DNA from: a virus
DNA length: 64,000 nucleotides
Virus record (IMG/VR): IMGVR_UViG_3300029444_000365
Location: 1-64,000 of that record
Reading direction: 5' to 3' (one strand)
Shown here in pieces: positions 2,310 through 45,598 of this stretch. The notes under the pieces were generated by a model. The model did no database searches. It had not been told where the DNA came from and saw only the letters and a list, made by a program, of their open reading frames with translations. Position 1 is the first letter of the stretch. Each line of letters begins with the position of its first letter. Made by a program: the position numbers and the translations under genes.

Positions 2310-3818
2310 TTAATCCACTTGTGGCTGATGAAAATTTACCATCTTCTCATCTGTACAAATATATGTATTGTCATACTGAGCCTTATATAAATGCTCAATC
2401 AACAAAGAGATGCAAGTTGTCACTATACTGTTACCGCTTTGTTTATATCCCTGAGTATCAGACATTCCAACTGCTTTACAGTTCTCATAATCAATATCAT
2501 CGAATCCCATGAGCCTGTGGCACTCTTTTGGCGTGAGCTTCCTCACAACTCTTAAATTGTCTCTTTCAACTTTTGGTTCTGTATTACCGCCACCACAAGT
2601 ATGCATAGCTGGTGCAATTCCATCTTCGCTATATACTCTGCGAGACTGTTCATGCATTCTCTGAAACTTTTCGCTGCATAAATCAGCAATATGTATTGGT
2701 TCGTTTGAGTCGGCAAGAATCTGTTTTGGCTGTTTATAATCGGTTGCCACTAAAGTACCCATTACTGAATCCTGCTGATAAACTAAATCTCTGTTACCTA
2801 ATCTGGTACAATTTTGTCCAATTGTTGTTCCTACTACATTCTTTTCAAATTTTGGATCTGTTATCTGAAGTCTTTTCTGTACTTCATCAGATAAGAAATA
2901 TTTCTCCAGAACACTGCTATCTGTTTCTAATAAATCCTTTAATCTGATTCCTGTATCAAAAGGCTGTGGAAATTCAAAAGACTTGGTATCAATATCCTTA
3001 CGAATAGAGATACAGAAGATTCTATTTCGATTCTGTGGAATACCTGTATTCTTTGCATTGATTGTCTGATAATATGAGTTATATCCCAAGTTATCAAGCC
3101 GAATCAGCCAATCCTTAAAACTGTCAATATACTTCTTTGATACAAGAGCATCTACATTCTCCATAAGCAAATACTTTGGTAATGTATTATTCTCTTTTGC
3201 TTTTACAAGAAGTCTCTCAACTTCATACAATAAACCTGAACGAGTTGATTTAATGTTGTGGTTGCCACAATTAGGGCATGTATAACGAGTATCTACGTCT
3301 AATTCAGATGGATCATATTCACAACCACAATCATGACATGTCCACTTTAATCCTTCCTGCTTACCGGCGATTGACAAATCTGTACATGGAGTCGAGTATG
3401 TAAGTAAATCACTATATGGCAGTGACTCAATCTGCATCATATCGCCAAGATTATGTGAAATATGGTCTGCTAACCAATATTTCTCAATACCTTTTGCCTT
3501 GTTCTTCTTTCGTGAAAGCTTCTCCCAATCATACGGAACATCTTTCTTAAAATCATATCCAAGTCTCTTATCTGTAAGCTGTTTTACCATTTCTTCTTTA
3601 CTTGGATAATCTTCATAATTTTCAATCATCTCATTAGTTAATCCACAATGAATTGCAGCATAACTAACTACTACTTCTTTGTCTAAATCTGCTGTTGCAA
3701 TCATATTTGCATTGAAGAGATGAGTATTATCAATTCCCTTCATCTGCGCACCAATACCACTGCAAAGCTCAATTACACTTAACTCACAATAATTATTTTT
3801 TTCTTTATTCTCTGTCAA
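2310..3818 (-). CDS. DNA (cytosine-5)-methyltransferase with internal zinc-ribbon insert
   Basis: motif I ELCSGIGAQ, motif IV TPCTDLSIAG (PC), ENV, QNRNRIF, TRD block SRRVYSEDGIAPAMHTCGGG, motif IX RKLTPKECHRLMGF, motif X QSGNSIV; insert CHDCGC..CPNCG. Confidence 0.85.
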   Translation of the reverse strand: MTENKEKNNYCELSVIELCSGIGAQMKGIDNTHLFNANMIATADLDKEVVVSYAAIHCGLTNEMIENYEDYPSKEEMVKQLTDKRLGYDFKKDVPYDWEKLSRKKNKAKGIEKYWLADHISHNLGDMMQIESLPYSDLLTYSTPCTDLSIAGKQEGLKWTCHDCGCEYDPSELDVDTRYTCPNCGNHNIKSTRSGLLYEVERLLVKAKENNTLPKYLLMENVDALVSKKYIDSFKDWLIRLDNLGYNSYYQTINAKNTGIPQNRNRIFCISIRKDIDTKSFEFPQPFDTGIRLKDLLETDSSVLEKYFLSDEVQKRLQITDPKFEKNVVGTTIGQNCTRLGNRDLVYQQDSVMGTLVATDYKQPKQILADSNEPIHIADLCSEKFQRMHEQSRRVYSEDGIAPAMHTCGGGNTEPKVERDNLRVVRKLTPKECHRLMGFDDIDYENCKAVGMSDTQGYKQSGNSIVTTCISLLIEHLYKAQYDNTYICTDEKMVNFHQPQVD

Positions 3819-4415: not shown

Positions 4416-4712
4416 TCAGCCTTTGAATAGAATCTCTATTTGAAATTTCTTTAATTCATCTTGAATCATCTTCTGTATATCTTCTTTGTCAAAAGATATA
4501 TTTGCAACTGGAATAATATTTGCATTTTGATTAACATCGCCAACAAGAGCATTATCAAATGCCTCTAAAAACATTTCTGCAATTTCTTTTTCATAGTTGC
4601 CACACATTCCATCGTAGTTAATATCTGCAATTACTCTCGAAAAGAAATCTTTGAACTTATCAGCGATAAAATCTTTCTCATACCCTATTGGAATATCAAT
4701 TGTTAATTTCAT
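4416..4712 (-). CDS. hypothetical protein (98 aa)
   Basis: ORF in co-directional array. Confidence 0.5.
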   Translation of the reverse strand: MKLTIDIPIGYEKDFIADKFKDFFSRVIADINYDGMCGNYEKEIAEMFLEAFDNALVGDVNQNANIIPVANISFDKEDIQKMIQDELKKFQIEILFKG

Positions 4713-4726
4713 TCTTTTATCTCACC

Positions 4727-5161
4727 TTACTTCCCAAATGGATTCTCCATAATACAATGGTCAACCATATCTTTAAATGCAAAAGGTGAATCAATCACTC
4801 TATTTGAATATCTGAAACGCTTTAAAAACTCAAGTACCTCATGTGCATCTCTATGTGATAATGGAATAAATGATACATACTCTGGATGACCTTTAATGCA
4901 TACAACCGCCCAAGAATGGTCATCAGAACAAAAACCAACATCCGTTCCAACATCTACCATCGAGTTCATCATCTTGTGACAATCATCAACCAATTTATAA
5001 GAATCTTCATATGCAATAGTTGCATCAGACAACCGTATATTGGCATATTCGCATCTTCTTCTTGCGTTATTGTATGATTTTTTAGCTGCTTCCACTTGAA
5101 ATAAATCATCTTCTAATAACCAATGTCTCAATTTATCTCGTATTTTATCCTTTAATTTCAC
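4727..5161 (-). CDS. hypothetical protein (144 aa)
   Basis: ORF in co-directional array, adjacent to macro gene. Confidence 0.5.
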   Translation of the reverse strand: MKLKDKIRDKLRHWLLEDDLFQVEAAKKSYNNARRRCEYANIRLSDATIAYEDSYKLVDDCHKMMNSMVDVGTDVGFCSDDHSWAVVCIKGHPEYVSFIPLSHRDAHEVLEFLKRFRYSNRVIDSPFAFKDMVDHCIMENPFGK

Positions 5162-5167
5162 ACTCTC

Positions 5168-5611
5168 TCACCTCTTACATACCAAAATCTCAACATCTGT
5201 ATCCGCAAAAATGTTTTTAATCTGTTCAGAGACATCATTCCAGTTCAATCTATCTAAGCCACAACCAATTACAGGCATTGCAATCTTCTTGATATTATTC
5301 TCCAAACAAATCTGTTTCATCTTTTCAAGTGCAAGTCTCATTGTAATTGTTGTTGGTTTGTGAAAATATCTCTCTTTTGTAATAAGATTTAATACCCTAT
5401 CTTCTAATAGACAATCACCACCAATCCTCTTATGAGTATACCGGTCAAAATAATATGGATATTTTGTCAGCAACCTTCTCTTCATATCAAACCTTTTATT
5501 GAACTCAACTACAATTCCTTTACCCATTCCAAAATCTGCACTGATACAATGTGCTAAATAATAATCTTCTGGTACTGTAAACAAGTCTTTATTTTCTTCT
5601 CTATATTTCAC
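5168..5611 (-). CDS. macro domain protein (ADP-ribose / ADP-ribose-1-phosphate / O-acetyl-ADP-ribose processing family)
   Basis: 147 aa, HCISADFGMGKGIVVEF...AMPVIGCGLDRL pattern typical of macro/Appr-1-p processing domains. Confidence 0.7.
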   Translation of the reverse strand: MKYREENKDLFTVPEDYYLAHCISADFGMGKGIVVEFNKRFDMKRRLLTKYPYYFDRYTHKRIGGDCLLEDRVLNLITKERYFHKPTTITMRLALEKMKQICLENNIKKIAMPVIGCGLDRLNWNDVSEQIKNIFADTDVEILVCKR

Positions 5612-5832
5612 TATTTCACCTCGCTTACCACTTTTATCTTACATTCGATTTCTACAACTTCTAGCTGCCTATCAGCGTTATAACGTCTTGACTTGAATCT
5701 TCTAACCGCATTCTCAGCAGTTTTTCTTGTTTCCCAATATTTGTGTCGTGGGTTTGTAAGATTACTTAGTAATTTTCCTGTTAATTTATCCATTACACCA
5801 TATAATGTAAATTCATTTTCCATCTCTTTCAC
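5611..5832 (-). CDS. hypothetical protein (73 aa)
   Basis: ORF, start overlaps macro gene stop. Confidence 0.45.
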   Translation of the reverse strand: MKEMENEFTLYGVMDKLTGKLLSNLTNPRHKYWETRKTAENAVRRFKSRRYNADRQLEVVEIECKIKVVSEVK

Positions 5833-5837
5833 CTCAC

Positions 5838-6038
5838 TTATTCTCTATATGGTTCAGGACATTTCTGCCACGCAACCACATCTACGGTGCTACCACTTGG
5901 TAAAACATCCCATATCCAATTTCCCTTTGGATATTCATATCTATCAGTTTGTCTTACCTGTCTCCCAAAAGATGTTTCTATTGTTACCAAATACCTTCCT
6001 TTTTTCTGTGGTGGATTTTTAGTTCCCCATTTTGCCAT
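5838..6038 (-). CDS. hypothetical protein (66 aa)
   Basis: ORF in array. Confidence 0.45.
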   Translation of the reverse strand: MAKWGTKNPPQKKGRYLVTIETSFGRQVRQTDRYEYPKGNWIWDVLPSGSTVDVVAWQKCPEPYRE

Positions 6039-6048
6039 TTATTTCACC

Positions 6049-6789
6049 TCACATCCATTTATCAATCTCGCTAAACACATTGCCTAGCGAATCAACAATC
6101 GTCAGATCCGTATCTTCATTCATTAACACTTGAATTTTTTCCCTATTGATAATAACCAAATGCCTACCACTGAAATACGAAATATAATTCGCTGCTGGAT
6201 AAACTTTTAATGAAGTGCCACCAATAATCAACATTTCAGCATCTCGAATGGCTCTGATTGCCCTATTTACCGCATCATTAGGAAGATTTTCTCCATATAA
6301 AGTTACGTCAGGTCTAATCAGACCACCACATTCACACTTTGGGATAGCTTCTTTAGTGTTAAACAAGAAATCTGAATGATATTCCATTTTACATTTACTA
6401 CAATAATTCCTCTGAGTAGTTCCATGAATTTCAAATACATTCTTACTGCCAGCTTTTTGATGAAGCCCATCAATGTTCTGTGTAACAATAGCCTTCAACT
6501 TACCTATTTCTTCCATCTTAGCAAGTACCTTATGAGTAATATTTGGCTCAATATTTCTTGTATCCATCTTCTGACGATAGAACTCATAGAATACCTTTGG
6601 ATTGTTATATAAGCATTCTCGACTCAAAAGATACTCTGGCTCGTATCTATCAAACTGAACGTCATGCTGATTATATAACCCATCCTTAGAACGAAAGTCT
6701 GGAATACCACTTTCAGTAGATACACCTGCTCCACCAAAGAATACAATATTATTTGATTCTTCTATATATTCTCTTAATTTTTCGTACAT
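6049..6789 (-). CDS. SIR2-family NAD-dependent protein deacylase (sirtuin)
   Basis: GAGVSTESGIPDFRS, QNIDGLH, two CxxC zinc pairs (CSKC..CECG), GTS motif; 246 aa. Confidence 0.85.
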   Translation of the reverse strand: MYEKLREYIEESNNIVFFGGAGVSTESGIPDFRSKDGLYNQHDVQFDRYEPEYLLSRECLYNNPKVFYEFYRQKMDTRNIEPNITHKVLAKMEEIGKLKAIVTQNIDGLHQKAGSKNVFEIHGTTQRNYCSKCKMEYHSDFLFNTKEAIPKCECGGLIRPDVTLYGENLPNDAVNRAIRAIRDAEMLIIGGTSLKVYPAANYISYFSGRHLVIINREKIQVLMNEDTDLTIVDSLGNVFSEIDKWM

Positions 6790-7061: not shown

Positions 7062-8450
7062 TTAATACTCTATCCAACCATCTGTAATACCAGTCATCCA
7101 ATAAATAAGATCTTCTCTATCATTTTTTAATCTTCCATCTATTACACGAGTTAAGATTTCATTGAGCCAGTATCCAACTTCTTTTCCACTTTTAATGAGC
7201 ATTGTATCCATTACATCTTTTCCATTAACTGCTAAATCCTTTAGAGAAAAACATTCATCGTCCTGTAAAACTTCTTCCAAAATATATCCGATATTGTCAA
7301 TCTTCTGTAATCTTGTTTCCTGATTAATGTCTGCTTGTGCTTTAATATCAGCTCTACGAACATTTAATAACCTTCTGAACTGTTCTTCTCCAATTTTATT
7401 AAGCCATCTCTTGACATATTTCTTCCCCATCTCAAAAGTTGTATCATGATAATAAACAAGCTGCACTACTTTTTCTCTTGTATCATTATCAAAACGAAGT
7501 CTTTTCATAATTGTATCAGTCATATCAGCACTGACTCTTCCATGACCTTTAAAATGTCTAATACCATCTTCTCCATCCTGATAACAATGTGGTTTTCCTA
7601 TGTCATGAAAGAACACCGCTAATGATGTAATTAAATCTATTGAATTTAAGTCGGGTTCACAATCACATTCATAAGCTTGTACTGCATGTACTGTATGATT
7701 CCATACATCATAAATGTGATATGGATTATTCTGTTGAAAGCCAAGCATATCTTTAATTTCAGGAATGAACAACGAGAATACTTCACGGAATAATCCTATC
7801 TGTATATAAAACTCGCTTGATAATGCAATCTTACAGAACTCACTGTTGATTCTCTCAATAGATATATTCTCTAAATTCTTATACATTTTATGAATATTAA
7901 AACTCACATCAGAATCAACCACAAATCCCAGTTGTGAAGCAAACCGAATAGCACGTAAAATTCTTAAAGCATCTTCCGAAAATCTATCCTCTGCTCTACC
8001 AACACATCTGATTTTATAATGCTCAATATCTTCCATACCATTAAACGGATTTACAAGACCAACTTCATCATTGTATGCCATCGCATTGATTGTAAAATCT
8101 CTACGCTTCAAATCTTCTTTAAGACTTCGTGTAAATGTTACGCTATCAGGTCTACGACTATCTGAGTAATTACCGTCAATTCTGTAAGTGGTGCATTCAT
8201 ATCCTTCACCGTCAATTACAATGGTAATAGTTCCATGTTGTAAACCAGTTTCAATAATTCTCTTGTCCTTGAATACTTCCATCATTTCATCTGGTGTGGC
8301 AGAAGTTGTAATGTCGTAATCGTGAATTGGTCTGCCAAGAATACTATCTCTCACTGCACCACCACATAAAAATGCCTCATATCCATTATTCTGTAAAGTA
8401 TGAATAATTTCATTTGCACCAGATGGAATTTCAATTTTCAATTTCTTCAT
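7062..8450 (-). CDS. cca: CCA-adding tRNA nucleotidyltransferase with C-terminal HD domain
   Basis: GGAVRD..DxD head motif (LCGGAVRDSILGRPIHDYDITT), RRDFTINA, HD motif FFHDIGK; 462 aa. Confidence 0.85.
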   Translation of the reverse strand: MKKLKIEIPSGANEIIHTLQNNGYEAFLCGGAVRDSILGRPIHDYDITTSATPDEMMEVFKDKRIIETGLQHGTITIVIDGEGYECTTYRIDGNYSDSRRPDSVTFTRSLKEDLKRRDFTINAMAYNDEVGLVNPFNGMEDIEHYKIRCVGRAEDRFSEDALRILRAIRFASQLGFVVDSDVSFNIHKMYKNLENISIERINSEFCKIALSSEFYIQIGLFREVFSLFIPEIKDMLGFQQNNPYHIYDVWNHTVHAVQAYECDCEPDLNSIDLITSLAVFFHDIGKPHCYQDGEDGIRHFKGHGRVSADMTDTIMKRLRFDNDTREKVVQLVYYHDTTFEMGKKYVKRWLNKIGEEQFRRLLNVRRADIKAQADINQETRLQKIDNIGYILEEVLQDDECFSLKDLAVNGKDVMDTMLIKSGKEVGYWLNEILTRVIDGRLKNDREDLIYWMTGITDGWIEY

Positions 8451-9831: not shown

Positions 9832-9948
9832 ATAGATTTCACCTCCAAAATTCCATAAGAAATGTGCGTTTCTTTCTAATGCAAAATATATACCACATAT
9901 AGTATATATTGCTTATTTTTAATACTATATATGGTATATCCATAACAA

Positions 9949-19289: not shown

Positions 19290-19883
19290 TTACTGGTCTG
19301 AATCAGCATCCTTTGTAACTACAGTATCGCTACCCTGTACTGTAACCCATCCATGTTTAAGTCTTGCTTCTGCCTCTTTCATACGAATGAGCTGATCAGT
19401 AATTGAACTGTTAATCTTTGCATTTGCGTCTGCCTCTGCCTCTGCTGCGATAACCTTTGCGTCTGCATCACCCTGAGCTTTTGTAACCTCTGCTTCAGCG
19501 TCAGCTTTTGCCTTATCAATATTTGTCTGATTCTGAATTGCCTGAGTCTCTGCGTCCTGTTGAGCCTTAATCTTAGCATTTATAGCTTTCATTGTATCTT
19601 TATCCACATCAATATTGATTAAAGATACGTTGCTAATTGTAATACCATACGGCTCAAATTTCTTTGCAAGATAATCTGAAACTGCACTATTAATATTCGC
19701 TCTTTCAGAACCAAGAATATCGGATACTTTGTAATTTGCAACAATCTCTTTAGTCCAAGAAACAATATTAGGTTTGATAAAACTATCTCTTACCTCTTTA
19801 CCACTCTGACCTTTAAATCTTGTAAAAACGTCTGCAACACTATTTTGTTTATACTGGTATGTATAAGTAAGCTCTAAAGTCAT
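19290..19883 (-). CDS. SPFH/band-7 (HflC/stomatin-like) protein, C-terminal part (frame B of a frameshift-split gene)
   Basis: TASSSEGKSMTLELTYTYQY..VADVF band-7 core, Ala/Glu/Lys-rich tail. Confidence 0.6.
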   Translation of the reverse strand: MTLELTYTYQYKQNSVADVFTRFKGQSGKEVRDSFIKPNIVSWTKEIVANYKVSDILGSERANINSAVSDYLAKKFEPYGITISNVSLINIDVDKDTMKAINAKIKAQQDAETQAIQNQTNIDKAKADAEAEVTKAQGDADAKVIAAEAEADANAKINSSITDQLIRMKEAEARLKHGWVTVQGSDTVVTKDADSDQ

Positions 19884-20167
19884 TGACTTACCCTCTGATG
19901 AACTTGCTGTAAAACTATCATCGTCTGGTGAATCTCCTTTTTAGAAGCTGTTAGATATGACTGCTCAAGACCAACTGTATATAATGTTGTCTTTACCATT
20001 GGACTCTTCCAATGCCAACCTTGATCAAGTACCTTTTTCTCTACTCCACCGTTCGCATTGTACTGAACTGCTGCATAGCCAGCAGGTACTCTTACTAAAG
20101 ATTTCATACATATGATTACTCCAATTACAAGTACAATTGCTGCTACAAATCCTCCTAGTTTCTTCAT
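19880..20167 (-). CDS. SPFH/band-7 protein, N-terminal part (TM helix + start of band-7 domain)
   Basis: MKKLGGFVAAIVLVIGVII TM, VPAGYAAVQYNANGGVEKKVLDQGWHWKSPM; joins frame B by a -1 shift at CTAAAAAG (19938-19946). Confidence 0.55.
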   Translation of the reverse strand: MKKLGGFVAAIVLVIGVIICMKSLVRVPAGYAAVQYNANGGVEKKVLDQGWHWKSPMVKTTLYTVGLEQSYLTASKKEIHQTMIVLQQVHQRVSQ

Positions 20168-21310: not shown

Positions 21311-21787
21311 CTATAACCTCTGATTCTTGGCAATACGTTTAATTTTCAAATCTTTTGGAATATCCATTGGTCTGAAATCAGACCTTATAATCCTTGATAT
21401 AATTACTGGCTTAACACCACATTTGGTATAACACATGACTATATCTCCTACCGATATATTCTCCATAAACATATTCCATTTCTCAGAAGTCGGAACTCTC
21501 CAAACGTATTCTTTATCACTCTGCTGATTTGGGTGCTTGCCATATATGTATGTAACTACTTTTTTATTCTCTCTTTCATATCTATATTGTTTGACATGTT
21601 CCACATCAAACTCTTTAAGCACTAAATATCTTATGTATCCATCTACCAATTCTTTTTTATGGTTGATTATAATTGGCTTGTCCAGTTCTCCATACTTAAG
21701 GAAATATCTCTTTACTCTGTTCATCTTTGCCTCATTTGGTACAGACTCGGCAAGATAATCTGGGATTATAATGTCTGCTAACTTCAA
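21311..21787 (-). CDS. ParB/Srx-like nuclease domain protein (158 aa)
   Basis: N-terminal KPIIINHKKELVDGYIRYLVLKEF resembles ParB N-domain (PIiV..G.hR). Confidence 0.5.
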   Translation of the reverse strand: MKLADIIIPDYLAESVPNEAKMNRVKRYFLKYGELDKPIIINHKKELVDGYIRYLVLKEFDVEHVKQYRYERENKKVVTYIYGKHPNQQSDKEYVWRVPTSEKWNMFMENISVGDIVMCYTKCGVKPVIISRIIRSDFRPMDIPKDLKIKRIAKNQRL

Positions 21788-21815
21788 TTTATTTGTTCTC
21801 CTTTATTTTATGTAT

Positions 21816-23264
21816 TTATGCATTTGCCATCTTATCAAAACTTCTCTTCATGAAGTCATAATTTACCTTCTGTGAAGAGCTAAATTTCTTCTGATTTTTG
21901 TATTTATTAATCCATTCCTCAAACTTGTCCTCATTCTCATTCTTGCAAGCATAAGCCATTAAAGCAATTAATGCCATCTGACACTTCTGATATAGTGGAA
22001 TATCTATTTTTATCTGATTATGATTAAAACAATACTCAACTAAATCTGTATATTCTTCAACATCCTCATTTGTCACTTCAGAATCTGCATTCTCCTGAAC
22101 AAAGGAAAGAATGCTTTCTTCCGTATTATCTTCAACATTTTCTTCCGTATTATTATTCTCTATTTCCTTGCTATTTGTTTCTGCTGTATCAATATATAAA
22201 AAATCGTTCATCAAAGCTGTATATGTATTAATTTTAGCAACTACAAGTTTTTTATCTGTAGTACCAGACTCTTTATTTAACGAATCGTAACTGACACCAT
22301 TAACATCAATACTATGTAATTTTCCTGATAACTCATGAATAAAATCTGCAAACTTGCTATCTTCTAAACCACATTTTGCAAATCTACTAAATACTGTCAG
22401 CCATACAGGAATATCTTTTTTAACAAGAATATCTTTACAAGTATCTTTACAAGCCGCTTCGATTCTTTGAAAATATTCATGGATTGTATTAAACTCTTCG
22501 ATATTACTGTTATCTTCGAGATAATCACATATTTCTTTTGCACCACGTTTATAGTCATCAAAATGAAAAACATTCATAACAGATCTGCATACACTCTGCA
22601 TATATTCTCCGTTTTTTCTGGCAGTATCAGAATACTCAATACTATTTTTAAAGAATCCTTCATCGGCAATGTTTTTAATTTTTCTTGCATATGTAGGAAT
22701 CCAAGTCAACGCTCTCTGACTTGTATTCATTCCTCTTTGTACATTCAATTTTCTTACCAATTTACTTACCTTTTTCATATCACAATTTTGATATGTGGCA
22801 ATTCTAAGCTGATAATTGTCAAATCGTTTCTTCAGTTCTTTTGGAAAATCATCATATGTTTTATTTTTAATATCAAATGTTTTCTTTTCCCATACAAAAT
22901 TCCCATCATCATCTTTTAGAAATTTACCATTTTCGTCTACTTGCTTTTCCTGGTACTCAATTTCACTATCTTCAATAGCACCAGTAAATTTATGATTTCC
23001 ATATCTAATCTGCATCAATGCGGTTGTTCTCTGAAGACCATCTACAATATATTTCTGTACAATATCTTCATTTAAAGGAATTTCGGCTAAAATTAAAGGT
23101 GGAAGATAATCACCAGTTAAGATCGTAACACCGATTCCATTAACAAATGGTTTGTCGCTACAGAAATACCTCTGTACATCCTGATTGTCATTAACATCTC
23201 CATCTTTTACCTCACTGGTATAGTTAATCAATGGAATATTTTCTTCTCTTACTTTCTTTGCCAT
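21816..23264 (-). CDS. DUF262-like (GmrSD N-terminal, DGQQR-motif ParB-fold) protein, 482 aa
   Basis: IVDGLQRTTALMQI = DGQQR signature of DUF262; long acidic C-terminal region. Confidence 0.6.
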   Translation of the reverse strand: MAKKVREENIPLINYTSEVKDGDVNDNQDVQRYFCSDKPFVNGIGVTILTGDYLPPLILAEIPLNEDIVQKYIVDGLQRTTALMQIRYGNHKFTGAIEDSEIEYQEKQVDENGKFLKDDDGNFVWEKKTFDIKNKTYDDFPKELKKRFDNYQLRIATYQNCDMKKVSKLVRKLNVQRGMNTSQRALTWIPTYARKIKNIADEGFFKNSIEYSDTARKNGEYMQSVCRSVMNVFHFDDYKRGAKEICDYLEDNSNIEEFNTIHEYFQRIEAACKDTCKDILVKKDIPVWLTVFSRFAKCGLEDSKFADFIHELSGKLHSIDVNGVSYDSLNKESGTTDKKLVVAKINTYTALMNDFLYIDTAETNSKEIENNNTEENVEDNTEESILSFVQENADSEVTNEDVEEYTDLVEYCFNHNQIKIDIPLYQKCQMALIALMAYACKNENEDKFEEWINKYKNQKKFSSSQKVNYDFMKRSFDKMANA

Positions 23265-23283: not shown

Positions 23284-23844
23284 TTACATTAAAATTTTTA
23301 CATTCTCATATGCTTGAATAGCTGCAAGATTATTAGAATATTGTTTGCTATCCATATGTAATAATTCTCTGATTTCCTTTGCCTTATATCCTTCAGATAA
23401 CAAAGCAACTATTTTCCGTTGATTATATGATAATTTATTCAAATATCTTTCTATCTTTGTGCCTTCAAGCATATACTCAGCAACAAGTTCATATGTATTA
23501 AAATCTGATGGAATTAATTCGCTTAATTCCATACCATCCTCTGATACCAAACTATTGATTGAATCAATCTTCTTCGCAGGAATTCGTTTGTTACGATTAC
23601 GATCACGAATTTCAGTTTTAAACTTTCGTTTAATGTTGCTGGCTAAGAATGAATCAAAACTGCATTGATTTTTTTCATCATATTTAAAAACCGAATAACT
23701 AAGTGTATCTAATGCAATGTCAAAGAAATCATCATAATCCTTATCAGATATGCCACCTATTTTGATTATCATTGGAAGACACATTTTCTTGAGCATAGCC
23801 ATTTCGTTGTTACAGTAATAGTTAAGTGTTTGTTGTATATCCAT
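23284..23844 (-). CDS. sigma-70 family (ECF/phage-type) sigma factor
   Basis: region 2-like core, region 4 HTH LSYNQRKIVALLSEGYKAKEIRELLHMDSKQYSNNLAAIQ. Confidence 0.7.
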   Translation of the reverse strand: MDIQQTLNYYCNNEMAMLKKMCLPMIIKIGGISDKDYDDFFDIALDTLSYSVFKYDEKNQCSFDSFLASNIKRKFKTEIRDRNRNKRIPAKKIDSINSLVSEDGMELSELIPSDFNTYELVAEYMLEGTKIERYLNKLSYNQRKIVALLSEGYKAKEIRELLHMDSKQYSNNLAAIQAYENVKILM

Positions 23845-23869: not shown

Positions 23870-24148
23870 TTACTTATTCTCTGTTTCGTTCACTTCAATT
23901 ATTCGATATGTATATTTTCGGTTGAATAATCCATTTATTGCTTTTTGTGTTCTTTCTTTGCTGACTTTAGTGGTGTCTACTTCAGCAATTACATTATGTA
24001 TAATGACCATCTCATCTTTGAGGTTACGTCTATTTTTTCGATTTGTACGAATTCTCTTATAGAATATCCAGCCTCTGTAGAGATCAACTGGCTTTTCCAA
24101 CTCTACTTCATGTAAGATATCTATCAATTCTTCGTCAGCTCGCTTCAA
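23870..24148 (-). CDS. hypothetical protein (92 aa)
   Basis: ORF. Confidence 0.45.
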   Translation of the reverse strand: MKRADEELIDILHEVELEKPVDLYRGWIFYKRIRTNRKNRRNLKDEMVIIHNVIAEVDTTKVSKERTQKAINGLFNRKYTYRIIEVNETENK

Positions 24149-24220
24149 CTCAATTTCGAGTTCTTTATATCTTTTTGCTGCATCACTAAGAATTCGTTCA
24201 CATTCGCCAAACTTATCAAC

Positions 24221-24496
24221 TCAAGACTTAACTGATTCAGCAACTTCATATCCATCATTACCTTTAATTGATACTTTAGTTGCTTTAACAATTCTCTCAA
24301 CTGATGTTTCCATCTTAATATCAGGTATACATTCCAATTTAAAATGTAAACGTCTCATAGATTTTGGTAGATGCTCCAAGATATTTTCTGCCTTTTGCTT
24401 TTGAAATGTGTCTCTTGTTTTCTTTGTACAAGCAATTGGTTGTCCATTATTGAGCCTTATGTATACACCATTGTTGTTTACAATTGCGTATTCCAA
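24221..24496 (-). CDS. hypothetical protein (91 aa)
   Basis: ORF. Confidence 0.45.
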   Translation of the reverse strand: MEYAIVNNNGVYIRLNNGQPIACTKKTRDTFQKQKAENILEHLPKSMRRLHFKLECIPDIKMETSVERIVKATKVSIKGNDGYEVAESVKS

Positions 24497-24528: not shown

Positions 24529-24588
24529 GAGGCATCAAGGAGTTGAACCTTACATAATTTGACTTTCCTGTAAAGCTGATGCCTCATC
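24529..24588 (-). other. tRNA-like remnant: 8-bp acceptor-like stem (GAGGCAUC/GAUGCCUC) + T-arm (AAGG-UUCAACU-CCUU) but no D or anticodon arm
   Basis: hand fold; middle hairpin has 5-nt loop so not a functional tRNA. Confidence 0.4.
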
Positions 24589-24715
24589 CGTTAGTGGATT
24601 AAACTATGGTAGAACTATAGCAGCTACACATTCTGCTCTTACAAGGCAATATGTATGTACAAAGAAACAAGTACCTTGCGTACTGCACTTACATCGGGTG
24701 TGATTCAGTGCATAA

Positions 24716-24787
24716 CGGGGCTACTGGGATTCGAACCCAGAAATACATGGATCAAAACCATGTGCCTTGCCATTTGGCGATAACCCT
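24716..24787 (-). tRNA. tRNA-Gln (anticodon UUG), no encoded CCA
   Basis: AGGGUUAUCGCCAAAUGGCAAGGCACAUGGUUUUGAUCCAUG...GGGUUCGAAUCCCAGUAGCCCCG; close to bacterial tRNA-Gln, unpaired 1:72, G73. Confidence 0.75.
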
Positions 24788-24845
24788 ATAATTTATTAAA
24801 TTTTGATTAAATATGTGAAAAATATGCTGAATTGCTTGAATTTAA

Positions 24846-25093: not shown

Positions 25094-25360
25094 CTATTTT
25101 CTTGAAAGAATTGTATGTAAATATCCCCTTGGCGTTTCTTCTTGGATTTCTGAAAAAACTTTAAGCCCATTGGAAAATTCATCACATACCCTTGCGATGC
25201 TTGCAGCTTCTTCCAAGATATTTGTGCAGTCGCAAAATTTCTTTTTACAAAATCCAACATTCACATCAGGTTTTGCTAAATCCTGCTTCGCTACTAATAC
25301 AATAGCATCTTTTTTTGCAAACTTTTTCGCTTCTTCCAGCGACATTTTAATATATTCCAT
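25094..25360 (-). CDS. hypothetical protein (88 aa) downstream of MazF toxin, possible antitoxin/partner
   Basis: ATGA-type junction with toxin gene. Confidence 0.45.
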   Translation of the reverse strand: MEYIKMSLEEAKKFAKKDAIVLVAKQDLAKPDVNVGFCKKKFCDCTNILEEAASIARVCDEFSNGLKVFSEIQEETPRGYLHTILSRK

Positions 25361-25361
25361 A

Positions 25362-25724
25362 TTAAGCCTCCTCTAATTGCCCGAAATTAGCATCGTATAC
25401 TGCTTTGACTTTTATTTTCTCTTGTAATTTAGTGATAGTACCTAACTTCTTCATTATTCTCTTTTTTGAAACTTGCCTAACGCATTCACCAAGAATCATT
25501 GAATCTTTAGTTAATCCTTTGCCTAAATCCTTATGAAAGAAAGAATGTGTCGGTTGCTGAAGATGTTTTATTTTACTTGTAAATGGAATTACAATTGTTG
25601 TATCAGAATAAATATTGCCATAAGCATTCTGAATTACAACTGCTGGTCTTATACCGCCTTGCTCTCCAGCAAAGACCACATCTCCGAAATCAACTCTTAC
25701 AATATCAAAAGTATTTATTTCCAT
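25362..25724 (-). CDS. mazF: MazF/EndoA (PemK/Kid) family mRNA interferase toxin
   Basis: FDIVRVDFGDVVFAGEQGGIRPAVVIQNAYGNIYSDTTIVIPFTS...PTHSFF...KDSMILGECVRQVSKKR matches B. subtilis EndoA/E. coli MazF core. Confidence 0.8.
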   Translation of the reverse strand: MEINTFDIVRVDFGDVVFAGEQGGIRPAVVIQNAYGNIYSDTTIVIPFTSKIKHLQQPTHSFFHKDLGKGLTKDSMILGECVRQVSKKRIMKKLGTITKLQEKIKVKAVYDANFGQLEEA

Positions 25725-25873
25725 ATATCACATCCTCCTTTCTTATATTGAGTATTCATAACTACCTTGGATTACCTTTGATACTTCGTATTATATACCT
25801 ATACATATTATATGTCAACATATAATATTGAAAAATATAATATTTTTTGATATTATATTAATAAGTAATTCAC

Positions 25874-26092
25874 ATGGAGGTATTATATATGAAATTAAAT
25901 GTGAAACAAATTCTTGAAAAACAAGGCAAAACTCCATATTGGTTATCTAAGGTTACAGGAATTTCTAACAATAATATTAGCAATATTTGCAATGGTGACA
26001 CAAAAAGTATTCGACTTGACACCATTGAGAAAATATGTCATGCACTAAATTGCACACCAAATGATATTTTCACCAACGACACTAATAAATAA
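25874..26092 (+). CDS. XRE-family HTH transcriptional regulator (72 aa)
   Basis: HTH_3-like; divergent from mazF; GGAGG RBS. Confidence 0.65.
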   Translation: MEVLYMKLNVKQILEKQGKTPYWLSKVTGISNNNISNICNGDTKSIRLDTIEKICHALNCTPNDIFTNDTNK

Positions 26093-26285
26093 ATTTAACG
26101 AGATCAAATGGTTGCACTTCCATTGCTTTAGCAACCAAATCAAGTACAGCTAAGTCAGGAACAGCACTTCCATTTTCCCATTTACTGATTGTACTTGGTG
26201 CAATGTCAGACATTTTCGCAAGCCCTCTTACTGTTATTCTCTTTTCAGTTCTGATTTTCTTTCCAATATATTTAACCATAATCAC
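26082..26285 (-). CDS. XRE-family HTH transcriptional regulator (67 aa)
   Basis: RGLAKMSDIAPSTISKWENG; 3' end overlaps convergent XRE gene by 11 nt. Confidence 0.65.
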   Translation of the reverse strand: MIMVKYIGKKIRTEKRITVRGLAKMSDIAPSTISKWENGSAVPDLAVLDLVAKAMEVQPFDLVKFIY

Positions 26286-27310
26286 ATCTCCATCAATTTC
26301 TCTTTCATTCCAACAGCTCCGTTTGCATAATTATTAACTGTTGTATTTACACTACTATGCCCCAACTGTTGTTGCACAAATGCAAGATTTCCATTCTGAT
26401 TCATTATACTAGCATAATAATGTCGCATCATATGTGGAGTAATACCATTTCCATAATTCTCAAATATCTGTTTGATATTTCTTTCCGTGGTACGTGTGCC
26501 ATTCTTATTAATAAAAACTGCTTCTTTGTCTACAATATTATTCAATGTGTTTCTATACTCTAGCCATTCTCTTAATGCTTTCAGAGCAGATCCAGTAAGA
26601 TATACAGGTCTTTTTTCAGTTTCTCTTTGATATCCTTTTGGTAAAACCATAATATGTGACATATCATTAAGATCAATATATTCACTATTTTCATCTAAAT
26701 GCAAATCTGATAAATCCAAACCAGCAAGTTCAGACTCTCTTATTCCAGTTCCTCTTAAGACACGAAAAATAGCAATATTCCTATTCCTTACACATTCATC
26801 CTTTTTCCACATTATTTTTTCTTCCATACCATTAAGCTGATTTTCTGTTGGAAGTTTTTGTGTTAAGTTGTTTTTAGAAGATATCCCTTTATATTTTATT
26901 TGTTTACTAAAATCTTCCATACTGTTATAAAGTTCTCTCAATAAACATTCTCTATATGAATATACATTTTTTATAAAACTTTTTATAATATTCTTTCTTG
27001 TTTCCGTTGTGGTTGGCGACATTCCATTTGTTTCCTTATATCTAAGGTATGAACTAATATTTTGTGGTCGCAAGTCGCTAAAATCAGAAACTTCTATTTC
27101 AGAAATTGATTTCTTATTAATAATATTACTTTCAATCAACCACTGTAAAAAATCTTTAATTGCTACTAAATAATTTAACGCTCCGTTCTTGCTTTCCAAC
27201 TCATTCAAGTAATCTCTTAAAAACTGTGGTGCATTTAACTCATCCAACTTCCTATTAAGCTTTTCAGCATTTTTATTTTGCACTTCTATCTTATAACACA
27301 TAATTATCAC
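26282..27310 (-). CDS. int: tyrosine recombinase / phage integrase
   Basis: C-terminal HMMRHYYAS...LGHSSVNTTVNNYAN (HxxR...Y) catalytic motifs; 342 aa. Confidence 0.8.
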   Translation of the reverse strand: MIIMCYKIEVQNKNAEKLNRKLDELNAPQFLRDYLNELESKNGALNYLVAIKDFLQWLIESNIINKKSISEIEVSDFSDLRPQNISSYLRYKETNGMSPTTTETRKNIIKSFIKNVYSYRECLLRELYNSMEDFSKQIKYKGISSKNNLTQKLPTENQLNGMEEKIMWKKDECVRNRNIAIFRVLRGTGIRESELAGLDLSDLHLDENSEYIDLNDMSHIMVLPKGYQRETEKRPVYLTGSALKALREWLEYRNTLNNIVDKEAVFINKNGTRTTERNIKQIFENYGNGITPHMMRHYYASIMNQNGNLAFVQQQLGHSSVNTTVNNYANGAVGMKEKLMEM

Positions 27311-29034: not shown

Positions 29035-29739
29035 TTATTTGCTTTCAATATCAACTGGATTTTCCAATTTTAAAATTTCATCTCTATGCTCTACCAACGC
29101 AGCACTTGCAATAGCATTTATTTTATTCTGGCAAAATGACTCAATTTCACCTTTTGCTTCCATAACAGTTTTATCCATCTGTTCATTGAACTGGTCTGCA
29201 ATAAAATCCAAATCACATCCAATATCCATACTTAATTTTCTAAGTTTAGATATTACAGCTTCTTTGTCTGCCTTTGTTAGTGCCTTTTTCTGTGAAAACA
29301 AATCAGTCACATCCTGAATTAACTGCTGTGCCTCATTCATTGCTTCCTTTGTTTTATCTTTGAATTCATCAGTAAACTGTTCTCTTTTACTAACAAAATC
29401 ACATGGAGGTATTTTACCATCTTTTTCAGTATAGCGAATTGTTACTGGAATTCCTGTTTCTTGTCCAAAAGATGTAATTGCCTCGGCAAATTGTGAATAA
29501 CTCATTTCGACTTTTACAATAGGCTTGTTGCCAAAAATATCGTCACGATTTAACCCTCTTGTAATATCAGCATGTCTAAGTTCCATTGTAATTACATTAC
29601 TATGTTCAATGCTACTTCCAAATAAAGGTGTCTTTCCACCATAAGCTCTGTTAAATAACAAAGTACCATAACTAGGATGGCTTGTTTTTGTTCCAAATTT
29701 TGTTTCTTCTACTTTATATTCATTTTCCATATATTTCAT
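29035..29739 (-). CDS. hypothetical protein (234 aa)
   Basis: ORF. Confidence 0.5.
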   Translation of the reverse strand: MKYMENEYKVEETKFGTKTSHPSYGTLLFNRAYGGKTPLFGSSIEHSNVITMELRHADITRGLNRDDIFGNKPIVKVEMSYSQFAEAITSFGQETGIPVTIRYTEKDGKIPPCDFVSKREQFTDEFKDKTKEAMNEAQQLIQDVTDLFSQKKALTKADKEAVISKLRKLSMDIGCDLDFIADQFNEQMDKTVMEAKGEIESFCQNKINAIASAALVEHRDEILKLENPVDIESK

Positions 29740-29769
29740 TCTCCTTCCATAATAAACTTAGAGTTCCTA

Positions 29770-29931
29770 CTATTTACTTTCGATAATTACATTGATTCCG
29801 TCAAGTTTCAATTCTCTTGCTATATTCTCTGCATTATACCAATCAAATTTTTCTGCATTATCTTTTGATACCCATGCACCATTATTGTAGTATTTAATAT
29901 CATTTTCTTTTTTTATGATATATTTACACAT
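29770..29931 (-). CDS. hypothetical protein (53 aa)
   Basis: GGGAGAATATATT RBS; below track cutoff. Confidence 0.4.
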   Translation of the reverse strand: MCKYIIKKENDIKYYNNGAWVSKDNAEKFDWYNAENIARELKLDGINVIIESK

Positions 29932-29970
29932 AATATATTCTCCCTGCTCACATAAAAACTTGTTTTCCTA

Positions 29971-30216
29971 CTATTTTTCATAATAACTACATGGTACTTC
30001 ACATTCTCCAGAGGACGTACATGCAGGATTTTTACCACACAATCCATTTCCTAGCATATATTTACACCCTTCTTTTCTTGTACCAATATTTCTCGAACCA
30101 CAATTATTACAATGATATGATTTCTCTTTTTCATCATATCGAATATCCATATTTCCGCAATCCAAACAAATCATATTTTTATTCTCCATTCTTCTAAAGG
30201 ATCTATTACAAACCAA
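29971..30216 (-). CDS. hypothetical Cys-rich protein (81 aa, 14 Cys)
   Basis: CLDCG..CNNCG..C..C. Confidence 0.45.
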   Translation of the reverse strand: MVCNRSFRRMENKNMICLDCGNMDIRYDEKEKSYHCNNCGSRNIGTRKEGCKYMLGNGLCGKNPACTSSGECEVPCSYYEK

Positions 30217-30616
30217 TCATTTTTTCAAAATACATTGCTGCTTTACCATTTCCACCTTCATGTTTATATCCAATACATCCAATTAATGCAGAATCAAGAG
30301 ATAAATATGAATGGTTTGTATCACTGTAGTTAATGTATCCATGATAATATGTTTTCTTATCTCTTTTATCAATATACTCTACAATCTGATATTCTCCAAT
30401 GCAATGTATCTTGATCACATTGCCCCATGTAAATTCTTTTTCTATCAGTTCCAACTTTTCATCGTGTGTTGCTTCTCTTACATCCTTATCTGTAATTGTA
30501 TCCAGTAAACTAAATGAACAACTTCCATAATTACACGGATGAAACTTAAAATCATTTTCGTTTTTTACTACTGTTCCAATCTGATTTTTGTATACAACAA
30601 TGTCTCCATATTTCAT
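30206..30616 (-). CDS. hypothetical protein (136 aa)
   Basis: ORF. Confidence 0.45.
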   Translation of the reverse strand: MKYGDIVVYKNQIGTVVKNENDFKFHPCNYGSCSFSLLDTITDKDVREATHDEKLELIEKEFTWGNVIKIHCIGEYQIVEYIDKRDKKTYYHGYINYSDTNHSYLSLDSALIGCIGYKHEGGNGKAAMYFEKMIGL

Positions 30617-30697
30617 ATAAATACCTCCAATTTTCTAATGAAACTATTATTTCTCGCTTTTATTTTAGCATGTAAAATGCATACTGTCGGTATTCAT

Positions 30698-31330
30698 TTA
30701 CCAATCTTCACCCCATAATTTCTTAGTCACATTAAAATCACTTGGCATTGTCCTACATTTTAAACATCCAAAATTCAACTTGTTAAATTCTTCCTCTGTA
30801 ATTTCAGTGCCCATATCTCCTTCAACAGTCGTATCATAATCAAGTTTTCCCTGACATTCTGGACGAAAATACCATACTCTATAAAATTCTTTTCCAGTTT
30901 TTCTATTTTTTCCGCTAAACAAACAAGTAATTGTTCTTCCTGAACTAATTTCGGTTGTTACTATTTTCCCAAAATAAGGATTATACTGTCCATATGAATT
31001 GTATCCTCTCTTGATATTATTTTGTTTGTCACGTTCACTCATTTCCAATAACTGCTGCGTACCTCTTCCGTAAGAAGTGTTATACACTCTGCTACTATTC
31101 ACTCCAACAGTTGAATACAACTTAACTCCATTTCTGTCCGTTGTTTCAACTCTCTTTACTCGCTCACCGTTGATATAATCATTGCACAATCTGTCCATAT
31201 AATGCACATTTCCATCTTTATCAACTGTACGAGTTGTTTTCTTCATGTCATAATTATCATAAGCTGCCTTTGCAGCACTTCCTGCATAAATTCCTAAGAA
31301 TGCTAATAGTCCTCCGAACATATTCATCAA
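30698..31330 (-). CDS. hypothetical secreted/membrane-anchored protein (210 aa)
   Basis: N-terminal signal-like hydrophobic segment. Confidence 0.5.
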   Translation of the reverse strand: MMNMFGGLLAFLGIYAGSAAKAAYDNYDMKKTTRTVDKDGNVHYMDRLCNDYINGERVKRVETTDRNGVKLYSTVGVNSSRVYNTSYGRGTQQLLEMSERDKQNNIKRGYNSYGQYNPYFGKIVTTEISSGRTITCLFSGKNRKTGKEFYRVWYFRPECQGKLDYDTTVEGDMGTEITEEEFNKLNFGCLKCRTMPSDFNVTKKLWGEDW

Positions 31331-31344
31331 CCACCTTTCTTATA

Positions 31345-31497
31345 TTATTTTCTCCATTTATCCATTTCGTCTACAGACTTCTTATTAAGATTGTTATACA
31401 TATCTTGTCTCTTTTTTGCTTCATCTTCCTGACTAGCTTTCCAAGGAAGATATATACATAAATATCCTGCAATCAAACATCCAATTAACTGTGCCAT
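31345..31497 (-). CDS. small membrane protein (50 aa)
   Basis: GGAGG RBS; TM helix. Confidence 0.45.
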   Translation of the reverse strand: MAQLIGCLIAGYLCIYLPWKASQEDEAKKRQDMYNNLNKKSVDEMDKWRK

Positions 31498-31545
31498 AAT
31501 AACTACCTCCGTTATCTTATTTCCGTTACCATATTACTACTTTTA

Positions 31546-31719
31546 TTATATCACTACTATTTCATTATTAATAGTATCAAAAATCTCGTAGAAATTCTCT
31601 TCATAAATATTATCCAGTTTATCAGCTTCCTCATACTCATTAAGGGCATACATCGCAGCTTCCAACGAATCGAAACTATCTATGACATTTCCACCCTGTC
31701 CATCTCTGATTTCAAACAT
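31546..31719 (-). CDS. hypothetical acidic protein (57 aa)
   Basis: GGAGGTGA RBS. Confidence 0.45.
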   Translation of the reverse strand: MFEIRDGQGGNVIDSFDSLEAAMYALNEYEEADKLDNIYEENFYEIFDTINNEIVVI

Positions 31720-31810
31720 ACAATCACCTCCATTATATTATTCTCCACTAAAAAACAGACAACCTTTCGATTGCCTGTTTCAAGTCACATATTCAATTTA
31801 CAATTTTATA

Positions 31811-32002
31811 TTAAAACTCTATAACTTTATTCTCTCTCCCATCTTGATATGTATCAGTATATTTATTTAGTACGTTAGCTAACTCTTCTAATGTTTCAGA
31901 CTGCTCAATTTCTTTTTTGTATTCAGTAAATTCTTTACAAAATCCTTCATAATCATCACCTAAATACTCTTCCCTAGTACATGGAATATTATCTTTTGGC
32001 AA
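31811..32002 (-). CDS. hypothetical protein (63 aa)
   Basis: ORF. Confidence 0.4.
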   Translation of the reverse strand: MPKDNIPCTREEYLGDDYEGFCKEFTEYKKEIEQSETLEELANVLNKYTDTYQDGRENKVIEF

Positions 32003-45592: not shown

Positions 45593-45598
45593 ATTTAA

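Follow-up and report, generated by a model that had tools for sequence, protein, structure and literature searches.

Between positions 23844 and 21816, a large temperate Lachnospiraceae phage would encode a transcription factor made of two parts, a sigma-70-family sigma factor and a DUF262-type protein, here called p2. As the main explanation, we consider it fairly likely that p2 is a nucleotide-gated regulatory subunit of this mobile-element sigma factor. Judging from gene order and gene fusions, the two proteins are very probably functional partners, while the nucleotide-gated regulation of sigma by p2, taken as a claim of its own, is put forward more tentatively.

The DNA analysed comprises positions 1 to 64,000 of IMGVR_UViG_3300029444_000365 (hereafter the window), and these 64 kb are the only part of the phage genome in view. 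The three ORFs that the initial annotation had singled out as ParB/Srx-fold proteins were all found, on the minus strand: p1 (21311-21787, 158 aa, TTG start), p2 (21816-23264, 482 aa, with DGLQRTTAL at residues 75-83) and p3 (46726-47646, 306 aa). Since the exact p2 and p3 sequences are widely indexed in a public assembly collection (in 98 and 115 blocks, respectively) and homologue searches returned many relatives of each of the three proteins, we regard p1, p2 and p3 as real genes. The proposed ParB/Srx fold was borne out for each protein in turn by profile and/or structure evidence. Their co-occurrence did not hold up as a joint system: the three families have no detectable kinship to one another (p3 was compared with p1 and p2 by hhalign), and p2 and p3, found together on 29 IMG/VR contigs at a distance of 20-30 kb, are simply two genes that a single phage lineage conserves. 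A sister genome (L004) even has a fourth DUF262 gene. This lineage is made up of Lachnospiraceae phages of about 150-190 kb. The element encodes an integrase, and a relative was found inserted into a chromosome of 3.0 Mb. All p2 relatives found belong to Lachnospiraceae and phages thereof; annotated phage and plasmid collections, searched at the nucleotide and the protein level, yielded almost no matches except MT835469, from which the fusions described below were discovered. A cultured host with a related prophage is Konateibacter massiliensis Marseille-P3773, in which the prophage lies at about 301-315 kb of NZ_LT860099.

The gene upstream of p2 (23284..23844, minus strand), which the initial annotation did not mention, encodes a sigma-70-family sigma factor of 186 aa with sigma2 and sigma4. 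Its product matched PHROG 351 'RNA polymerase sigma factor' (E 5.5e-7), and the profile of the sigma family (A4) matched SigH (3mzy) over regions 2-4 with an E-value of 5e-9, along with many SigA, RpoS and FliA chains. The window protein by itself gave sub-threshold Pfam matches only; among 26 members of its family, 18 matched Sigma70_r2 and seven matched Sigma70_r4_2, so that both the region 2 and the region 4 domains of sigma-70 factors were found for this gene. The p2 reading frame starts 19 nt past the stop codon of sigma and is served by a separate ribosome-binding site (AAGGAGG). Of 98 loci with a p2 homologue, reaching down to about 32% identity, 97 have a sigma gene immediately upstream of it, and the single exception is a locus that starts inside p2. 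The most distant loci are L093-L101 (32-37% identity); the sigma and p2 ORFs are all that they still have in common with the window, and their flanks include chromosomal genes (PrkC/PP2C, xseA-dxs, GH97). In some loci selfish genes are inserted between sigma and p2, and the pair is retained. No sequence relationship between p2 and sigma was detected by hhalign. Part of the adjacency signal reflects shared ancestry, the relatives being confined to one bacterial family and its phages.

In MT835469 the two proteins are joined in a single ORF of 765 aa at positions 29703-32000 (L102:4146-6443), in which residues 3-216 correspond to sigma and residues 241-763 to p2. The p2 family comprises 775 clusters at 50% identity, and sigma::p2 fusions account for 53 of the best 150 representatives, which are those covered by the count. 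The fusion chains match Sigma70_r2/r4_2 and GmrSD_N together, and in the Pfam scan they never matched PF02195. One of them, P0301, sits in the syntenic slot of the split pair. About 11 transitions between the fused and the unfused state were inferred on a rough tree. Across the family, p2 is found either directly 3' of sigma or fused C-terminally to sigma4, the position of a sigma regulator. Related phages and Lachnospiraceae genomes commonly encode a sigma::DUF262 fusion, of which the two genes in the window are the split form.

The assignment of p2 as a DUF262-type protein with a DGxQR motif, already made by the initial annotation, is confirmed by its homologues and by structure matches. By itself p2 reached 24.5 bits against Pfam GmrSD_N (PF03235), which is under the gathering score of 33.2, and 33 of 37 p2 homologues matched this domain (best E 1e-10). 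The BFVD matches of p2 are GmrSD_N/DUF262 proteins, and its fold agrees with BrxU and SspE. The N-terminal DUF262/GmrSD_N domain with QR and DGQQR motifs that marks the GmrSD family was found in p2, as was the N-terminal nucleotide-binding ParB/Srx fold of partition ParB proteins. The nucleotide-pocket motifs of DUF262 are kept (Q31-R32, D75-G-x-Q-R79 and N174), and across about 140 clusters the most conserved positions are the residues of the pocket; those conserved family-wide are Q31, R32, E61, D75, G76, Q78, R79, Y104, N174 and Q183. One distant clade has C or S in place of Q78 in DGxQR, which counts against nucleotide gating by p2. Searches of the PDB with the single sequences and first profiles of p2 and p3 returned nothing; a more diverse p2 profile gave a non-significant alignment with Noc over QR...DGxQR (E 0.8), which serves as an illustration only.

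The pocket lies in an N-terminal core (residues ~1-180), which is followed by a helical middle domain (181-356), an acidic, disordered linker (357-384) and a helical C-terminal domain (385-482). The AF2 model (pTM 0.48) does not fix the relative arrangement of these domains. The C-terminal half had been described as acidic; the acidity is indeed present, but it spans all of p2, with a strongly acidic linker. The C-terminal domain is missing from 26 of 137 representatives and is therefore not essential for the core function of p2. As modelled, this layout resembles that of ParB, with an N-terminal NTP domain, a middle domain, a flexible linker and C-terminal helices that could dimerise. Rather than acting as a switch on free sigma, p2 might then be a DNA-loaded, nucleotide-dependent clamp or loader that, acting from the DNA, turns on middle or late transcription by sigma, on the model of T4 gp45 with gp33/gp55 or of KorB sliding from its site. 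NTP-gated DNA clamps are known for ParB-fold proteins, KorB and HerB act on transcription, and the tight coupling to sigma would fit a clamp as well as it fits a regulatory subunit. We nevertheless consider a clamp unlikely, because p2 is acidic and neither an HTH, another recognisable DNA-binding motif nor a basic surface was detected in it, because about one fifth of the p2 representatives do without the C-terminal domain, and because BrxU and SspE, the DUF262 proteins with solved structures, are not known as sliding clamps. Moreover, no repeated palindromic or parS-like site was found in the window, where the repeat search gave mostly ribosome-binding site and start-codon contexts.

The absence of a DUF1524/HNH partner domain, noted from the start, was upheld by domain and motif searches: p2 has no DUF1524 His-Me-finger nuclease domain of the GmrSD type and no nuclease motif, and its C-terminal half contains no conserved His. 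In a search of the PADLOC-DB defence models, p2 and p3 had no match at E <= 0.1, and p1 gave only a chance-level match to Csm3. These results bear on the roles that the initial annotation had considered for the ParB/Srx proteins, namely defence, anti-defence or exclusion factors (a modified-DNA sensor or a decoy) and partition or packaging proteins. The DUF262 fold is chiefly associated with type IV restriction and PT-sensing defence, the phage has anti-defence-looking genes (a DNA methyltransferase at 2310-3818, SIR2, nicotinamidase-like and tRNA nucleotidyltransferase genes), and p3 stands among early genes (DUF5688, DUF4313) of a kind typically seen in the leading regions of conjugative elements; defence- or partition-type roles may be conceivable for p1 and p3. 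For p2, however, its obligate linkage, and often fusion, to a sigma factor speaks against them, in addition to the lack of a nuclease and of a defence-model match. A partition function is further opposed by the lack of any HTH or ParB-type Pfam domain in p1, p2 and p3 and of a ParA among the scanned ORFs of the 64-kb window, by the failure to find parS, and by the presence of an integrase and of a chromosomally integrated relative. Overall, we regard this group of roles as improbable. It is more improbable still that the linkage is an inherited gene order or an annotation artefact and p2 an independent NTPase or a nucleotide-degrading ParB/Srx enzyme like Osa, since, although the relatives all come from Lachnospiraceae and their phages and synteny around the pair is largely conserved in the jumbo-phage lineage, the pair is kept where every flanking gene differs, 53 independent 50%-identity clusters consist of one uninterrupted ORF, and one fusion was also seen as an isolated chromosomal gene.

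The initial annotation had treated p1 and p2 as a pair. The invariant partner of p2 is instead the sigma factor encoded before it. Only about 25 of 99 loci have p1 behind p2, the distant MT835469 among them; elsewhere the slot 3' of p2 is taken by at least 20 unrelated genes. p1 is an optional accessory protein in a variable slot downstream of the sigma-p2 module. Its description as ParB N-domain-like was correct: residues ~1-70 form a minimal ParB-N-like domain with the motif DGYIR, and with a diverse profile the N-terminal ~75 residues matched the ParB N-domain of pNOB8 (5k5d, E 9e-5). A ParB-like PHROG was also matched (E 1.5e-3). This domain is followed by DUF5839 (PF19157) at residues ~85-140, where the match at 89-139 scored 32.9 bits as compared to a gathering score of 23.7, and homologues match likewise. 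The protein is basic (pI 9.5), and distant members have Q or M in place of the Arg in DGYIR.

Directly upstream of sigma, the phage lineage carries a further gene, gene X (23870..24496, minus strand), which is about 205-240 aa long if intact. In the window it is split by an in-frame TGA at a conserved Trp codon into two ORFs (24221-24496 and 23870-24148), as seen when its read-through translation was compared with the intact copy of locus L003. The gene X profile matched 82 loci, L091 and L102 included, and a Pfam scan assigned it to no family. Recoding of TGA to Trp was considered for this stop and rejected, as 14 long ORFs out of 78 end in TGA, the search for a suppressor tRNA came up empty and the gene is disrupted in different ways in other assemblies. 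No sigma-dependent promoter or regulon was identified: tRNA genes fill the region upstream of gene X and defeated phylogenetic footprinting there, and a scan for promoter and terminator consensus gave nothing beyond the shuffled expectation.

The third protein, p3, is encoded in the block of early genes and has no relation to the sigma module. It had been called a DndB-like DGQHR protein. The family is indeed of the DGQHR type (family consensus DGQHR, with G103, H105 and R106 invariant), but the letters in the window are EGQHR (102-106), a variant of the DndB motif, and neither p3 nor 32 family members matched Pfam DndB (PF14072). By itself p3 had no Pfam match at E <= 1. Of 32 homologues, 54-95% identical to p3, 22 matched PF20188 (DUF6551; best E 8.6e-8) and three matched ParBc_2, and by family transitivity p3 may be placed in DUF6551. 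A second motif, HxPxWQR, is found at residues 61-67, and the helical C-terminal domain contains the invariant WNGYADxYNGKAYT; the pI is 9.1. An HTH_26 gene lies about 1.5 kb upstream of p3 in 65 of 80 loci, and downstream a HicA-like 75-aa gene and a 150-aa gene are present in 43 and 48 of the 80 loci, respectively. We conclude that p3 is an independent ParB/Srx-fold protein that probably binds NTP.

If p2 is a regulatory subunit of sigma, the DUF262 module would control a sigma factor as its effector in place of a nuclease. Binding or hydrolysis of NTP in the QR/DGxQR/N pocket would switch the interaction between p2 and sigma, and the switched sigma would in turn set the timing, or the choice of DNA, with which host RNA polymerase is directed to phage promoters. 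The part played by p2 would be comparable to that of anti-sigma factors or of the C-terminal extensions of ECF sigma factors, and its pocket may respond to DNA as well. The folds, the conserved motifs, the obligate adjacency and the fusion are observations, from which we infer the NTP dependence and a physical contact between sigma and p2 in the split form; the regulation may be positive or negative. Weighing against this reading are the Pfam score of p2 below the gathering threshold, the loosely defined domain arrangement of its AF2 model, its acidity and lack of a recognisable DNA-binding motif, a C-terminal domain that part of the family does without, the failure to identify a sigma-dependent promoter or regulon, and the share of common ancestry in the adjacency signal. 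A bolder version, in which the DUF262 module would, as in GmrSD, BrxU and SspE, read the chemical state of DNA (methylation or another modification) in a nucleotide-dependent manner and pass the signal to an 'epigenetically licensed' sigma factor, is speculative and in our opinion quite unlikely; if it were true, initiation would occur only on DNA with (or without) the element's own modification, and a phage or island could tell its own DNA apart from that of the host when transcription starts.

Sigma factors are usually controlled by anti-sigma proteins, by proteolysis or by small C-terminal extensions. The coupling of sigma and p2 points to an undescribed mode of transcription control, and a ParB/Srx-fold module as sigma partner would add a control principle based on NTP gating and possibly also on DNA state. 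The effectors of ParB-fold switches, which include nucleases, DNA-modifying enzymes and transcriptional repressors, would be extended to sigma factors. The p2 family is abundant in phages of human-gut Lachnospiraceae, where its members are at present annotated only as 'DUF262' or 'hypothetical'. Neither restriction nor anti-restriction follows from a DUF262 match in a phage, and an easy annotation error is corrected here.

The DUF262 module of GmrSD, BrxU and SspE acts as a sensor that hydrolyses nucleotides and governs the DUF1524 nuclease fused to it; p2 differs in having no DUF1524/His-Me nuclease, no match to defence models and a sigma factor as the coupled effector. As regards the position of the regulator, the sigma-p2 module resembles ECF41, ECF42 and the sigma/anti-sigma operons, in which the regulator is either C-terminal to sigma4 or co-transcribed downstream, and which likewise occur in fused and split forms. 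However, the known ECF extensions consist of SnoaL-like or TPR domains, and the anti-sigma domain of classical anti-sigma factors binds zinc or is transmembrane, whereas the regulator in our case is a DUF262 NTP-binding fold. The best solved relative of the sigma factor is SigH.

Among nuclease-less proteins of the ParB/Srx superfamily, DndB is similar in size to p2, controls transcription and responds to ATP, being an ATP-modulated transcription regulator (PMC10853773). It shares with p3 the DGQHR-type motif. On the other hand, neither p2 nor p3 matches Pfam DndB, dndCDE is not nearby, and DndB represses by binding its own promoter and is not associated with a sigma factor as p2 is. KorB, HerB (YfjB) and VirB, ParB-like NTP switches by which mobile elements regulate transcription, have an HTH, bind specific DNA sites as CTP-dependent clamps and are not coupled to a sigma factor, unlike p2, and no HTH or site was found for p2 or p3. 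HerB is a ParB-like protein that reprograms transcription (PMC13370423), and a ParB-like activator of phage dioxygenases on dsDNA has been described (PMC13229309). The closest in principle are the fusions of a ParB-CTPase fold with Sigma70 reported in a survey, in which a nucleotide-binding module is likewise joined to a sigma-70 domain; ATP binding was found for one bacterial example, and phage DUF6551 proteins, the probable family of p3, bound CTP or ATP (10.1101/2025.10.10.680097). That survey was seeded with PF02195 and described neither the genomic context nor the function of its Sigma70 fusion (10.1101/2025.10.10.680097), and since the sigma::p2 fusions match PF03235 and never PF02195, they probably represent a different branch. 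The ParB-fold/Sigma70 fusions, DndB, HerB and the dioxygenase activator are precedents that support the reading of p2 as a nucleotide-gated regulatory subunit of its sigma factor.

The three ORFs that the initial annotation had assigned to the ParB/Srx fold were all found on the minus strand as described: p1 (21311-21787, 158 aa), p2 (21816-23264, 482 aa; residues 75-83 read DGLQRTTAL) and p3 (46726-47646, 306 aa). Profile searches recovered ParB/Srx families for each of them, and the observation stands. As a single sequence, p2 scored 24.5 bits against Pfam GmrSD_N (threshold 33.2); the same model was matched by 33 of 37 p2 homologues, and the structural neighbours of p2 among viral proteins were GmrSD_N/DUF262 proteins. 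The C-terminal half of p1 matched DUF5839 above the gathering threshold, while its N-terminal ~75 residues, in a diverse alignment, matched the pNOB8 ParB N-domain across the DGYxR motif (E 9e-5). No Pfam match was obtained for p3 itself, and its homologues matched DUF6551 (22/32) or ParBc_2 (3/32). The description of p3 as a DGQHR protein holds for the family consensus, but the motif reads EGQHR in the window copy. Profile-profile comparison detected no relationship among the three families; they are independent, highly divergent superfamily members and not a duplicated set. All three are indeed present; their co-occurrence, regarded as unusual, is however ordinary by itself in a phage whose size is 150 kb or more, and the interest lies rather in the coupling of p2 to a sigma factor.

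Directly upstream of p2, with a gap of 19 nt, lies a gene for a sigma-70-family sigma factor (23284-23844, 186 aa; hereafter sigma), and p2 has its own AAGGAGG site. The initial annotation did not mention this gene. It matched the PHROG 'RNA polymerase sigma factor' (E 5.5e-7), and its family profile matched SigH (PDB 3mzy, E 5e-9) and dozens of SigA/RpoS/FliA chains; Sigma70_r2 was found in 18/26 family members and r4_2 in 7/26. A p2 profile search of 1.84 billion representatives gave 775 clusters at E <= 1e-3. In 53 of the best 150 clusters, the sigma profile lies N-terminal to the p2 profile in one chain of ~680-780 aa. These fusions match Sigma70_r2 or r4_2 along with GmrSD_N, and never PF02195. 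One fusion representative (P0301) occupies the exact syntenic slot of the split pair of the window (integrase, HTH, PemK, gene X, fusion), and another, without the C-terminal domain, stands alone beside plsX. The annotated phage collection contained one p2 match only, in MT835469, a gut phage of 176 kb (29% identity), where sigma (residues 3-216) and p2 (241-763) form a single uninterrupted 765-aa ORF, followed by a p1 homologue. A rough tree places most fused and unfused proteins in separate clades, with ~11 transitions inferred. Because sigma and p2 are fused into a single chain in relatives, which is classical gene-fusion evidence, they probably act as one functional unit.

The most conserved positions of p2 over ~140 clusters are Q31-R32, E61, D75-G76-x-Q78-R79, Y104, N174, M179 and Q183, which we take to be the DUF262 QR, DGQQR and N motifs lining the nucleotide pocket. 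QR and DGxQR fall on ParB boxes I and II in a non-significant alignment with Noc. The pocket core is followed by a helical middle domain (residues 181-356) and then by a linker (357-384, net charge -9) that is disordered and strongly acidic. The C-terminal domain (385-482), again helical, occurs in 111/137 representatives; p2 is acidic over its whole length. As originally noted, p2 carries no signal of a DUF1524/HNH partner domain, and among family representatives its C-terminal half has no conserved His. On the best-supported reading, sigma and p2 would make up a transcription factor of two parts, fused elsewhere, and p2, as a nuclease-less, nucleotide-binding DUF262 module, would regulate sigma. 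Its effect on sigma may be inhibition or activation, and p2 may engage DNA. It is also plausible that p2 is a DNA-loaded clamp or co-activator. The defence, decoy or partition roles proposed at first are unlikely for p2, which matched none of the PADLOC defence models; they may still apply to p1 and p3.

A sigma homologue lies immediately upstream in 97 of the 98 loci encoding a p2 relative, and the sole exception begins within p2. The adjacency is not merely frozen synteny: where p2 is most diverged (L093-L101, 32-37% identical), no ORF besides sigma and p2 still matches the window, the flanks include chromosomal genes (PASTA kinase and PP2C phosphatase, xseA...dxs, GH97 and others), and insertions are tolerated. 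The module is a target of selfish elements: a 415-aa IscB-like ORF (L029/L030/L034, about 4680-5927) or a 178-aa GIY-YIG-like ORF (L054/L062, 5182-5718) separates sigma from p2, and an IS200/IS605 TnpA+TnpB pair (L006:9904-11419) disrupts the gene downstream of p2. Mere synteny is contradicted by the sigma-p2 fusions.

The slot after p2 is highly variable, with a p1-like gene in only ~25/99 loci; elsewhere it is filled by no fewer than 20 unrelated families, so that the proposed p1-p2 pairing was not borne out and p1 lies outside the core. Since p1 recurs there in several sub-lineages, the distant MT835469 among them, the two may be loosely linked in function. Distant members have Q or M in place of the Arg of the DGYIR motif, which suggests that p1, with a pI of 9.5, is a non-catalytic, basic binding domain. 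On the other side of the pair, gene X (23870-24496, minus strand; about 205-240 aa), which matched no Pfam family, precedes sigma in 82 loci. In the window a conserved Trp codon of gene X is replaced in frame by TGA (...AESVKS*VDKFGE...), as it is in L001. The in-frame stop of L014 is a different one, at a Gln two codons before that site, and L002 has a frameshift, so gene X has been disrupted several times independently. Global TGA recoding is an unlikely source of the stop, as TGA ends 14 of 78 long ORFs. Between gene X and tRNA-Gln (24715-24788) we noticed by eye a tRNA-like remnant (~24529-24585, minus strand). Its 7-bp acceptor stem (GAGGCAT/ATGCCTC) pairs perfectly, and it has a hairpin resembling a D-arm, a GGTTCAACTCC T-arm and only ~9 nt in place of the anticodon arm. 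It was called by neither ARAGORN nor Rfam, and related loci have genuine tRNA genes in its place.

p3 lies 23.5 kb from p2, close to where the leftward early block starts, and its neighbours include an HTH_26 gene. The adjacent block (44547-46616, minus strand) holds DUF5688, DUF4313 and a weakly HicA-like 75-aa gene, families that otherwise typify the leading regions of Firmicutes conjugative elements, which hints at early-entry functions common to phages and conjugative elements. The genes seen near p3 included no ParA, dnd, dpd or dioxygenase partner. Both p2 and p3 loci are found on 29 IMG/VR contigs; therefore, they are conserved lineage genes and not one system. Phage DUF6551 proteins have been reported to bind CTP or ATP (10.1101/2025.10.10.680097). 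Among window ORFs, the p2 profile matched nothing besides p2, while a sister phage has a fourth DUF262 gene ~5 kb upstream of its integrase (L004:4053-4853, 266 aa, GmrSD_N 68.8 bits); the lineage gains and loses extra DUF262 genes.

The element is a phage. The window is AT-rich (~31% GC), and from ~52 kb to 0 kb nearly every gene runs leftward in a single block. It encodes an integrase, a DNA methyltransferase, homing endonucleases, three tRNAs and several large proteins with PHROG-only matches. Its relatives are IMG/VR viral contigs of ~150-190 kb, with remoter ones in Lachnospiraceae genomes, including the isolate chromosome of Konateibacter massiliensis. The exact p2 and p3 proteins each occur in ~100 blocks of a public assembly collection. 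Both are genuine genes, abundant in a phage lineage of the human gut. Just upstream of the sigma module, a lysogeny-type block conserved across the lineage (25094-27310) contains a tyrosine integrase (26282-27310), divergent HTH genes and a PemK-family toxin (25362-25724) with an 88-aa partner downstream. On the minus strand, a SIR2-family protein (6049-6789, E 1.5e-56), an isochorismatase/nicotinamidase-like protein (1308-1817, E 2.8e-23) and a tRNA nucleotidyltransferase (7062-8450) suggest NAD metabolism and tRNA repair, possibly aimed at host defences. A Band_7/SPFH gene (19290-20167, minus strand) is split into 95-aa and 197-aa ORFs with a 4-nt overlap, as in L001, and is a single intact 292-aa gene in L002 and L004. 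A 51-nt near-perfect intergenic palindrome, TATACAATATATAGTAT...ATACTATATATTGTATAT, present in two copies 78% identical (1902-1952 and 9889-9939), could be an operator, terminator or recombination site.

Full-text literature searches that combined DUF262/GmrSD with sigma factors, DGQHR/DndB with sigma, and ParB with sigma extensions turned up no account of this architecture. It is not categorically new, because the principle of a ParB fold joined to sigma is already hinted at in one preprint, where ATP-binding ParB-fold/Sigma70 fusions are mentioned in passing (10.1101/2025.10.10.680097). The top UniProt viral relative of p2 is named just 'DUF262 domain-containing protein'.

Sigma/anti-sigma operons, and ECF sigma factors that carry C-terminal regulatory extensions, offer a parallel to this gene order, in which sigma is followed by its partner, and to its occurrence in both fused and split form. 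In characterised relatives, the ParB/Srx module, acting as a nucleotide-dependent sensor or loader, controls the activity of a partner on DNA. In GmrSD, BrxU and SspE this partner is a DUF1524 nuclease; elsewhere it is DpdA or a phage 5mYOX dioxygenase (PMC13229309). Promoters, too, are controlled by ParB/Srx-type proteins, such as DndB (PMC10853773), HerB (PMC13370423) and KorB.
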